Origin: Escherichia coli
GTDB taxonomy: Bacteria > Pseudomonadota > Gammaproteobacteria > Enterobacterales > Enterobacteriaceae
NCBI RefSeq assembly: GCF_003334405.1
Contig: NZ_QOWM01000075.1
DNA length: 232 bases
Strand: one strand, 5' to 3'
Part shown: positions 1 to 232 of the stretch, piece after piece
How positions within the stretch are numbered: position 1 is the stretch's first letter
How the letters are laid out: every line of letters begins with the position of its first letter
Position numbers and translations under genes: made by a program
The notes under the pieces: model-generated
Seen by the model: the letters and a program-made list of their open reading frames with translations, nothing else
Told to the model about the DNA's origin: nothing
Databases searched by the model: none

Positions 1-76
1 GTCCCCTTCGTCTAGAGGCCCAGGACACCGCCCTTTCACGGCGGTAACAGGGGTTCGAATCCCCTAGGGGACGCCA
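1..76 (+). tRNA. gltT: tRNA-Glu (anticodon UUC), complete, with genomically encoded 3' CCA
   Basis: The cloverleaf can be folded directly from the sequence. Acceptor stem: 1-7 gtcccct pairs with 66-72 aggggac (7 bp), with discriminator g73 and CCA at 74-76. Anticodon stem: 28-32 ccgcc pairs with 40-44 ggcgg (5 bp), loop 33-39 ctttcac, anticodon TTC at 35-37 (reads GAA/GAG codons). T-arm: 49-53 agggg pairs with 61-65 cccct, with the canonical T-loop ttcgaat at 54-60. A short D-arm lies around 10-26. The 76-nt length and the sequence match my recollection of E. coli tRNA-Glu. The gene symbol is uncertain among the rrn-operon paralogues (gltT/gltU/gltV/gltW), which cannot be told apart from this window. 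Confidence 0.96.
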
Positions 77-109
77 CTTGCTGGTTTGTGAGTGAAAGTC
101 ACCTGCCTT

Positions 110-149
110 AATATCTCAAAACTCATCTTCGGGTGATGTTTGAGATATT
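110..149 (+). promoter_or_regulatory. boxB-like stem-loop of the rrn spacer antitermination module (RNA hairpin)
   Basis: Seen in sequence: 111-120 atatctcaaa is the exact reverse complement of 139-148 tttgagatat (10 bp, plus a110-t149). A 2x2 internal mismatch follows (121-122 / 137-138). The inner stem is 123-127 tcatc pairing with 132-136 ggtga (one G-U wobble), capped by a TTCG tetraloop at 128-131. Its position immediately 5' of a boxA-like motif matches the boxB-boxA arrangement described for rrn leader and spacer regions. Confidence 0.55.
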
Positions 150-161
150 TGCTCTTTAAAA
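150..161 (+). promoter_or_regulatory. boxA-like antitermination element (binding site for the NusB-NusE/S10 complex in rRNA antitermination)
   Basis: The sequence tgctctttaaaa at 150-161 closely matches the rrn boxA consensus (TGCTCTTTAACA-like). It sits directly 3' of a hairpin, as expected for the spacer boxA of rrn operons. Confidence 0.7.
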
Positions 162-190
162 ATCTGGATCAAGCTGAAAATTGAAACACT

Positions 191-208
191 GAACAACGAA
201 AGTTGTTC
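191..208 (+). other. Predicted RNA hairpin with GNRA tetraloop in the pre-23S spacer (possible processing or folding element)
   Basis: Seen in sequence: 191-197 gaacaac is the perfect reverse complement of 202-208 gttgttc (7 bp), closing a GAAA tetraloop at 198-201. Its function is not established from the sequence alone. Confidence 0.4.
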
Positions 209-232
209 GTGAGTCTCTCAAATTTTCGCAAC

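Follow-up and report, generated by a model that had tools for sequence, protein, structure and literature searches.

A Glu-type 16S–23S spacer segment of the Escherichia coli rRNA operon, with tRNA-Glu, a spacer antitermination module and the pre-23S leader

Ribosomal RNA operons carry a second boxB-boxA-boxC set upstream of 23S (PMC10250234). The boxA consensus of rrn operons is 5'-UGCUCUUUA-3' (PMC2724277), and boxA is the binding site of NusB/NusE in antitermination (PMC2800207, PMC2724277). Leader-trailer helices flanking 23S rRNA are known and ubiquitous (PMC10250234; PMC11404451), and pre-23S rRNA contains a 27-bp helix that is processed by RNase III (PMC10250234). StyR-44, an RNA of ~109 nt, has been described upstream of 23S in all seven operons of Salmonella Typhi and E. 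coli and classed as 'part of ribosomal operon' (PMC2943607). On northern blots it is discrete and growth-rate regulated in both S. Typhi and E. coli, and its discoverers allowed that it could be a metastable processing intermediate (PMC2943607). Here we compare with these systems a stretch of 232 nt of DNA, hereafter the window. All positions are given in window numbering, and the features described lie on the + strand.

Over its full length the window is identical (232/232) to the 16S–23S spacers of E. coli K-12 rrnC and rrnE, as found by comparison with all seven rrn operons of MG1655. In these two operons it occupies positions 86-317 of a 354-nt spacer of the short Glu-type, which carries the gltU/gltV tRNA-Glu. 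The exact E. coli match over all 232 nt has an E value of 3e-117 (megablast, complete E. coli genomes) and is far beyond chance. Megablast matches were found in 5,425 of the 5,426 complete E. coli genomes, with coverage of at least 80% in 5,394 of the 5,426 and a median of 7 matching places per genome; the best place is at least 99% identical to the window in 4,983 of 5,432 E. coli records. The annotated context of exact copies is 16S – tRNA-Glu – 23S – 5S, with a single tRNA-Glu in the spacer. In strain 120899, the exact copy lies between annotated 16S and 23S genes, separated from 16S by 85 nt and from 23S by 37 nt; there, as in K-12 rrnC/rrnE, 23S starts 38 nt after window position 232. Since 16S and 23S sequence lies outside the window, this operon context is assigned through identity to the annotated copies.

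The sequence-only reading had proposed a Glu-type rrn spacer of the Escherichia/Shigella kind, and for E. coli this proved accurate, both in the identity to rrnC/rrnE and in the position between 16S and 23S in the matched genomes. The comparison it proposed between the Glu-type and Ile/Ala-type spacers of K-12 is equally clear: the window is of the rrnC/rrnE Glu-type and is shared with the Ile/Ala-type only from position 148. We are therefore close to certain that the window is an rRNA-operon segment of E. coli (sensu lato), from a Glu-type 16S–23S spacer in the rrnC/rrnE variant of K-12, comprising the Glu tRNA, the antitermination module and the pre-23S leader. It covers the transcribed region from the first base of tRNA-Glu(UUC) to 37 nt before 23S.

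The chromosomal operon of origin is a separate matter. In strain 120899, the operon with the exact copy is flanked by clpB and kgtP, which is the rrnG position in K-12. Because the rrnC/rrnE-type variant sits at the rrnG position in this strain, the operon of origin is not inferable from the window. The spacer variant is not tied to one chromosomal operon, and assignment to one particular rrn operon was rejected, as the same variant stands at different operons in different strains. Gene conversion between E. coli rrn operons has been measured and fits the presence of one variant at differing operon positions (PMC8022953).

Two further observations concern the E. coli Glu spacer itself. The distance from 16S to tRNA-Glu is 171 nt in K-12 rrnB/rrnG and 85 nt in rrnC/rrnE and in the rrnG-position operon of strain 120899, so that the Glu spacer has another length polymorphism immediately 5' of the window. 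In CFT073 (NC_004431.1 3858141-3858504), a hybrid spacer is identical to window positions 1-174, continues with a 104-nt insert and then resumes with window positions 175-232. The insert consists of a tRNA-Ala 3' end (CCCGCATAGCTCCACCA), the Ala-type post-tRNA spacer with its boxB hairpin, and a second boxA, giving this spacer two boxB-boxA modules and a tRNA-Ala fragment. The hybrid apparently arose by recombination of a Glu-type with an Ile/Ala-type spacer at a short GATC homology.

Readings of the window as a coding or independent gene were rejected. On both strands, the longest open reading frame encodes 26 aa, and scans for sigma-70-like promoters and intrinsic-terminator-like sites gave none in the window. 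Weak Rfam matches to SNORD24, ceN33, mascRNA, Tymo_tRNA-like and plastid psbI-rps4 scored far below their gathering scores and were set aside as chance. All elements of the window are already known, and it is a textbook piece of the E. coli rrn operon. The value of the analysis is bookkeeping: the source is fixed as an E. coli-type rRNA operon, and every base is annotated with known elements.

Positions 1-76 form a tRNA-Glu(UUC) gene with the gltT/U/V/W sequence. ARAGORN finds a single gene on the + strand, a tRNA-Glu with anticodon TTC, whose limits are exactly 1-76. The Rfam tRNA model RF00005 matches with 60.1 bits (gathering score 29, E = 5.9e-13) and all four arms paired, and the gene is identical (76/76) to the annotated gltT, gltU, gltV and gltW of K-12 MG1655. 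The acceptor stem is formed by 1-7 and 66-72 (GTCCCCT/AGGGGAC), the D arm by 10-26 and the anticodon arm by 28-44, with anticodon TTC at 35-37; a 4-nt variable loop (45-48), the T arm (49-65), the discriminator G73 and an encoded CCA (74-76) follow. The genomically encoded CCA, which the earlier reading had pointed out, is read directly from the sequence. The usual tRNA-processing enzymes cut tRNAs out of pre-rRNA, and the tRNA of the window would be excised in the same way; with CCA encoded, no CCA addition would be needed. Its identity to the E. coli genes suggests that it is charged by GluRS and used in translation.

Identity to the window drops stepwise from E. coli to other Enterobacteriaceae and then to sequences in which the tRNA alone matches, and the enterobacterial source suggested earlier is borne out by this gradient. 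Full-length identity is 95.7-100% in E. coli. Ungapped full-length identity is 90.5-91.8% in Klebsiella, Enterobacter and one Salmonella spacer (spacer a); the comparators other than E. coli are mislabelled chromosomal pieces in PLSDB, one or two per genus, and the upper bound of ~92% rests on few sequences. A second Salmonella spacer (spacer b) agrees at 224/232 positions apart from a 39-nt insertion, or at 82.7% when the insertion is scored. Citrobacter reaches 94%, over 1-187 only, and Serratia ~78-81%, over 1-188. For Proteus, Plesiomonas, Aeromonas, Pasteurella, Vibrio, Pseudomonas and Azospirillum, the match is confined to the tRNA.

In the tRNA gene itself, all 76 positions agree in Klebsiella pneumoniae, K. 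aerogenes, Salmonella, Enterobacter and Citrobacter; the agreement is 75/76 (C21T) for Proteus, Plesiomonas and Aeromonas, of which Aeromonas belongs to another order, and 71/76 for Serratia. No aligned tRNA, tRNA-Ala included, departs from the CCA. Beyond these groups, tRNA-Glu genes on replicons of the alphaproteobacteria Azospirillum lipoferum (NC_016587.1) and A. thermophilum (NZ_CP029356.1) and of Pseudomonas aeruginosa (NZ_CP042268.1) are 96-97% identical over 76-79 nt. The tRNA and its CCA thus carry almost no taxonomic signal and give no placement below the family or order level. The sequence-only reading had put the tRNA with its encoded CCA in first place, beside the spacer, as a clue to the origin; the origin was right, but the signal lies in the spacer, the tRNA being identical in five genera.

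The taxonomic signal sits in the spacer blocks 77-149 and 187-211. In a table of segment identities, the discriminating parts are 77-109, the top of the 110-149 hairpin and the 187-211 hairpin; among the Enterobacteriaceae compared, boxA and 163-186 show no variation and 212-232 almost none. The segment 77-109 is the variable spacer just 3' of the tRNA, and forms the tRNA 3' trailer in the precursor. Its identity to the window is 30/33 in rrnB, 29/33 in rrnG, 27/33 in Klebsiella, 19/33 in Salmonella spacer a, 33/33 in Salmonella spacer b and 17/33 in Serratia, and it is one of the two blocks most discriminating between taxa and operons. A weak hairpin (88-91/99-102) is predicted here in the centroid fold only, and one of its pairs is broken by the Klebsiella sequence. 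The 187-211 hairpin matches the window at 24/25 positions in Salmonella and at 9-11/25 in Klebsiella, Enterobacter and Citrobacter.

These blocks are mosaic and shared across genera. Salmonella spacer b has a 77-122 block identical to the window, placed after the 39-nt insertion, and Klebsiella resembles the window in the 110-149 hairpin (38/40) but at only 11/25 positions of 187-211. The window's 123-138 hairpin top and its 187-211 hairpin occur together in none of the sampled non-Escherichia sequences, and all blocks are combined only in E. coli. In the Glu spacer of Salmonella Senftenberg NCTC10384 (NZ_LN868946.1), the 39-nt insertion directly follows the tRNA CCA and ends in a repeat of the tRNA 3' end (CCAGGGGACGCCA), after which comes the E. 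coli-identical 77-122 block. The other Salmonella Glu spacer, unlike that of NZ_LN868946.1, differs strongly from the window in this block.

An exact 84-mer (window 71-154) was found at 3 loci among ~100,000 species-representative genomes, a set with one genome per species and many draft assemblies without rrn spacers: in E. coli, in a Chryseobacterium contig and in an Oxalobacter MAG contig. The scan bears on the possibility that the window comes from another genus of Enterobacteriaceae with the same spacer variant, such as Salmonella, Klebsiella, Enterobacter or Citrobacter. Such a source would be in keeping with the 76/76 tRNA and with the invariance, or near invariance, of 150-186 and 212-232 in these four genera, and Salmonella spacer b even has the exact 77-122 block. 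Yet the best full-length agreement outside E. coli is either the 90.5-91.8% ungapped identity or the 224/232 with its 39-nt insertion, the combination of the 123-138 top and the 187-211 hairpin is confined to Escherichia among the sequences sampled, and the exact 84-mer was found in no representative genome of the four genera. We consider this origin highly improbable.

A closer relative is harder to set aside. Shigella is placed phylogenetically within E. coli, and an identical spacer is thus plausible there. An origin in Shigella or in a non-coli Escherichia species (E. albertii, E. fergusonii, E. marmotae and others), instead of E. coli proper, we regard as unlikely while granting it more weight than any of the other sources discussed here. 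The great majority of the 5,426 complete E. coli genomes contain exact copies, making E. coli the most likely source by prior abundance, and nothing positive points to another Escherichia species. The exact 84-mer is in no other Escherichia species representative, a weak indication given that drafts often come without rrn spacers.

The two exact 84-mer matches in unrelated taxa could be taken to suggest a non-enterobacterial organism, and the 10 matching places on E. coli plasmid records, together with many PLSDB matches, a mobile element. The records themselves argue otherwise. The match in Chryseobacterium mucoviscidosis VT16-26 (NZ_MVAG01000169.1) was rejected as contamination of a Bacteroidota assembly: the contig is 249 nt long with ~1.5x coverage by name, and is an E. 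coli rrn spacer covering window positions 1-209 with the single change A200G. The match in an Oxalobacter sp. MAG (JAHAYL010000010.1, locus 9676-13266) was rejected as part of a chimeric contig joined through conserved rRNA. The terminal 3.36 kb of this contig contains the E. coli 16S end, tRNA-Glu, spacer and 23S (~2.5 kb) at 99.5-100%; identity then falls to 96% and 90% over the last ~400 nt of 23S, the trailer and 5S are unrelated, and the first 6 kb have no match in any E. coli genome searched. With one exact match a contaminant and the other a chimera, the best genuine matches stay within the Enterobacteriaceae, as the earlier reading had expected. The full-length PLSDB matches, for their part, are chromosome pieces of 0.4-5.4 Mb or small unannotated contigs, and the 93.8-kb 'plasmid' among the E. 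coli records appears to correspond to the chromosomal rrnC-rrnA interval. An origin in a non-enterobacterial organism or a mobile element is, on these grounds, barely credible.

The database records deserve a comment of their own. Whole chromosomes or large pieces of them are labelled as plasmids in PLSDB (CP125156.1, 5.37 Mb; NZ_OL790812.1, 4.09 Mb; NZ_AP026896.1, 4.94 Mb), a caveat for plasmid-based inference, though such pieces are useful as comparators. The circular E. coli F526 'plasmid' pF526-2 (NZ_OY757140.1, 93,760 bp; NZ_OY843411.1 is of the same size) has a single rrn operon, with trkH-hemG (the K-12 rrnA side) upstream of it and hdfR (the rrnC side) downstream, and its size is close to the distance of 93,723 bp from rrsC to rrsA in K-12. 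It looks like the chromosomal rrnC-rrnA interval circularized by rrn-rrn recombination, or like an assembly artefact of a tandem duplication. Two lessons follow for short rrn fragments: a tRNA gene with its CCA is too conserved for placement below family or order, the information being in spacer blocks 77-149 and 187-211, and an exact spacer match in an unrelated taxon is best regarded as a contaminant or a chimera unless proved genuine.

The spacer antitermination module begins with a boxB-like hairpin at 110-149, recognized from an inverted repeat, folds, covariation and its location. It has an 11-bp lower stem (110-120/139-149), a 5-bp upper stem (123-127/132-136) and a UUCG loop, and is predicted by MFE and centroid folding alike (z = -3.67 for 77-232). 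In a ten-sequence alignment, 96.9% of the cells of this helix are paired and 4 pairs are changed on both sides. The 187-211 hairpin, discussed below with StyR-44, behaves similarly, with 89.8% of cells paired and 6 of 10 pairs changed on both sides; one such change is ACTGAACAAC/GTTGTTCGT in E. coli vs GACACACAG/TGTGTGTTC in Klebsiella. For the two hairpins together, 94.2% of cells are paired and 10 pairs are changed on both sides. Sliding the partners by 1-3 columns lowers the paired fraction to 27-46%, and none of 500 shuffles reaches the observed values. Both hairpins are conserved structures with variable sequence. At the equivalent of 110-149, K-12 rrnG and the Ile/Ala spacers form the same hairpin from different sequence. 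The position of the hairpin directly 5' of boxA agrees with the boxB-boxA-boxC set described upstream of 23S (PMC10250234).

The spacer boxA, TGCTCTTTAAAAA, follows at 150-162, with its core TGCTCTTTA at 150-158. The core is the exact rrn boxA consensus UGCUCUUUA; the window has one copy of it, and none of 200 shuffles contains it. Neither the seven K-12 operons nor any of the Enterobacteriaceae spacers compared deviates from the full boxA at any of its 13 positions. By analogy with the published systems, the boxA of the window would be a NusB/NusE site that nucleates an antitermination complex for transcription of 23S. The boxB-like hairpin and boxA UGCUCUUUA may act together here to reload or retain this NusB/NusE-nucleated complex as transcription proceeds into 23S.

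Beyond boxA, two segments are predicted to serve as leader strands of the pre-23S leader-trailer helix. The first, at 160-184, is in the boxC position and is the candidate leader strand of a distal part of this helix, with a predicted partner at +33 to +56 past the 23S 3' end. The second, at 214-229, is predicted by co-folding to pair with trailer positions +21 to +32 and is nearly invariant. In the co-fold of the K-12 rrnC spacer and trailer, 161-182 and 214-229 pair with trailer +21 to +55, and the co-fold also reproduces the known helix beside the ends of mature 23S, outside the window. The published 27-bp helix lies beyond the 3' end of the window, at about 250-275 in its numbering.

The complementarity was also measured across operons. 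Computed duplex energies between the 30 nt that follow the boxA core and the real trailer are -23.5 to -29.7 kcal/mol in 10/10 operons from 9 species (two E. coli operons and one each from Salmonella, Klebsiella, Enterobacter, Citrobacter, Serratia, Proteus, Plesiomonas and Aeromonas). Against 500 dinucleotide shuffles, z lies between -4.9 and -8.3, and at most 1 of 500 is as good, in the 10 operons. The test is alignment-free, as the offset of the partner varies from +33 in E. coli to +62 in Plesiomonas and +92 in Aeromonas, and the trailer sequence of the pairing partner also differs between the operons tested. The change T169A in the Serratia and Proteus leader has its counterpart in the trailer, A-to-T, and in Aeromonas there are coordinated changes of length. 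Within K-12, 160-184 is invariant in all seven operons.

From this computed complementarity, 160-184 probably pairs with the 23S trailer. The sequence after boxA would then pair with the region downstream of 23S in a long leader-trailer helix, which may bring the two ends of 23S close to each other for cleavage by RNase III and for 50S assembly. Such pairing would explain why 150-232 is frozen across the seven operons and across genera. The roles given here to factor binding, cleavage, antitermination and assembly are those that the literature suggests for these elements. The distal helix beside boxA is likely a known extension of the leader-trailer helix. A more specific proposal is that pairing of 160-184 and 214-229 with trailer +21 to +56 extends the helix beyond its usual 27 bp up to boxA, with the outer stem of the Rfam StyR-44 model as an alternative conformer formed after processing; we offer this with little confidence and think it quite unlikely. 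If it should not have been explicitly described, the distal helix may be of interest as a link between an antitermination complex that holds the leader and the joining of the 23S ends.

The same part of the window, 154-232, matches Rfam RF01830 (StyR-44) over model positions 1-79 of 107, the match ending at the window end, with 93.4 bits (gathering score 54, E = 1.5e-15). StyR-44 is Salmonella Typhi npcRNA 44 and occupies the same site upstream of 23S; the window is without the last 28 positions of the model. In the chimeric contig JAHAYL010000010.1, a full 107-position match stops 7 nt short of the LSU rRNA match. The inner stem-loop of the model is the local hairpin at 187-211, seen in the Rfam structure line and in folds, with stems 187-189/209-211 and 191-197/202-208 and a GAAA loop. 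The outer stem of the model (173-182/220-229) competes with the long-range trailer pairing supported by the duplex comparison above. In Serratia, this local outer stem is broken and the long-range complement is retained.

The strength of the Rfam match, together with the discrete, growth-rate-regulated RNA of ~109 nt on northern blots (PMC2943607), might suggest that 154-232 is an independent small regulatory RNA gene and not pre-rRNA leader. The surroundings of the match speak for the leader: in all seven operons it is internal to the rrn transcription unit, the window contains no promoter- or terminator-like site, boxA makes up the 5' part of the match, and the sequence following boxA has its complement in the 23S trailer in 10/10 operons. 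Serratia, moreover, loses the Rfam outer stem and keeps the long-range complement, and a metastable processing intermediate was left possible by the discoverers (PMC2943607). An independent gene is thus very unlikely. As part of the pre-23S leader, 154-232 may also be recovered as StyR-44 RNA, most likely as a by-product of pre-23S processing.

Compared with the K-12 operons, the window shows no difference from rrnC/rrnE and the same order of tRNA-Glu, boxB hairpin, boxA and 23S leader. The operons with the long Glu spacer type share an identical tRNA-Glu and boxA with it, and 163-232 is the same save for single bases. Within this type, rrnB (440 nt) differs from the window at 101, 104, 105 and 200, and rrnG (431 nt) at 13-16 positions depending on the alignment, including a different upper hairpin (123-138) with compensating changes and the substitutions T109C, G144T and C197T. 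The Ile/Ala-type spacers of rrnA, rrnD and rrnH share 148-232 and the boxB-boxA arrangement, but carry tRNA-Ile and tRNA-Ala instead of tRNA-Glu and have other post-tRNA spacer and hairpin sequences. Within 148-232, positions 197 and 200 alone vary among the seven K-12 operons.

The closest relatives of the antitermination module outside the spacers are the rrn leader site (boxB-boxA-boxC after P2) and the nut sites of phage lambda, which have the same boxA core UGCUCUUUA. The rrn leader also has a hairpin immediately upstream of boxA, but its sequence after the core is ACAAUUUA, in contrast to AAAAUCUG in the spacer copy of the window, and it lies upstream of 16S, whereas the spacer boxA lies upstream of 23S. 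In lambda nut, the order is boxA followed by boxB and N protein is required, unlike the window, where boxB precedes boxA.
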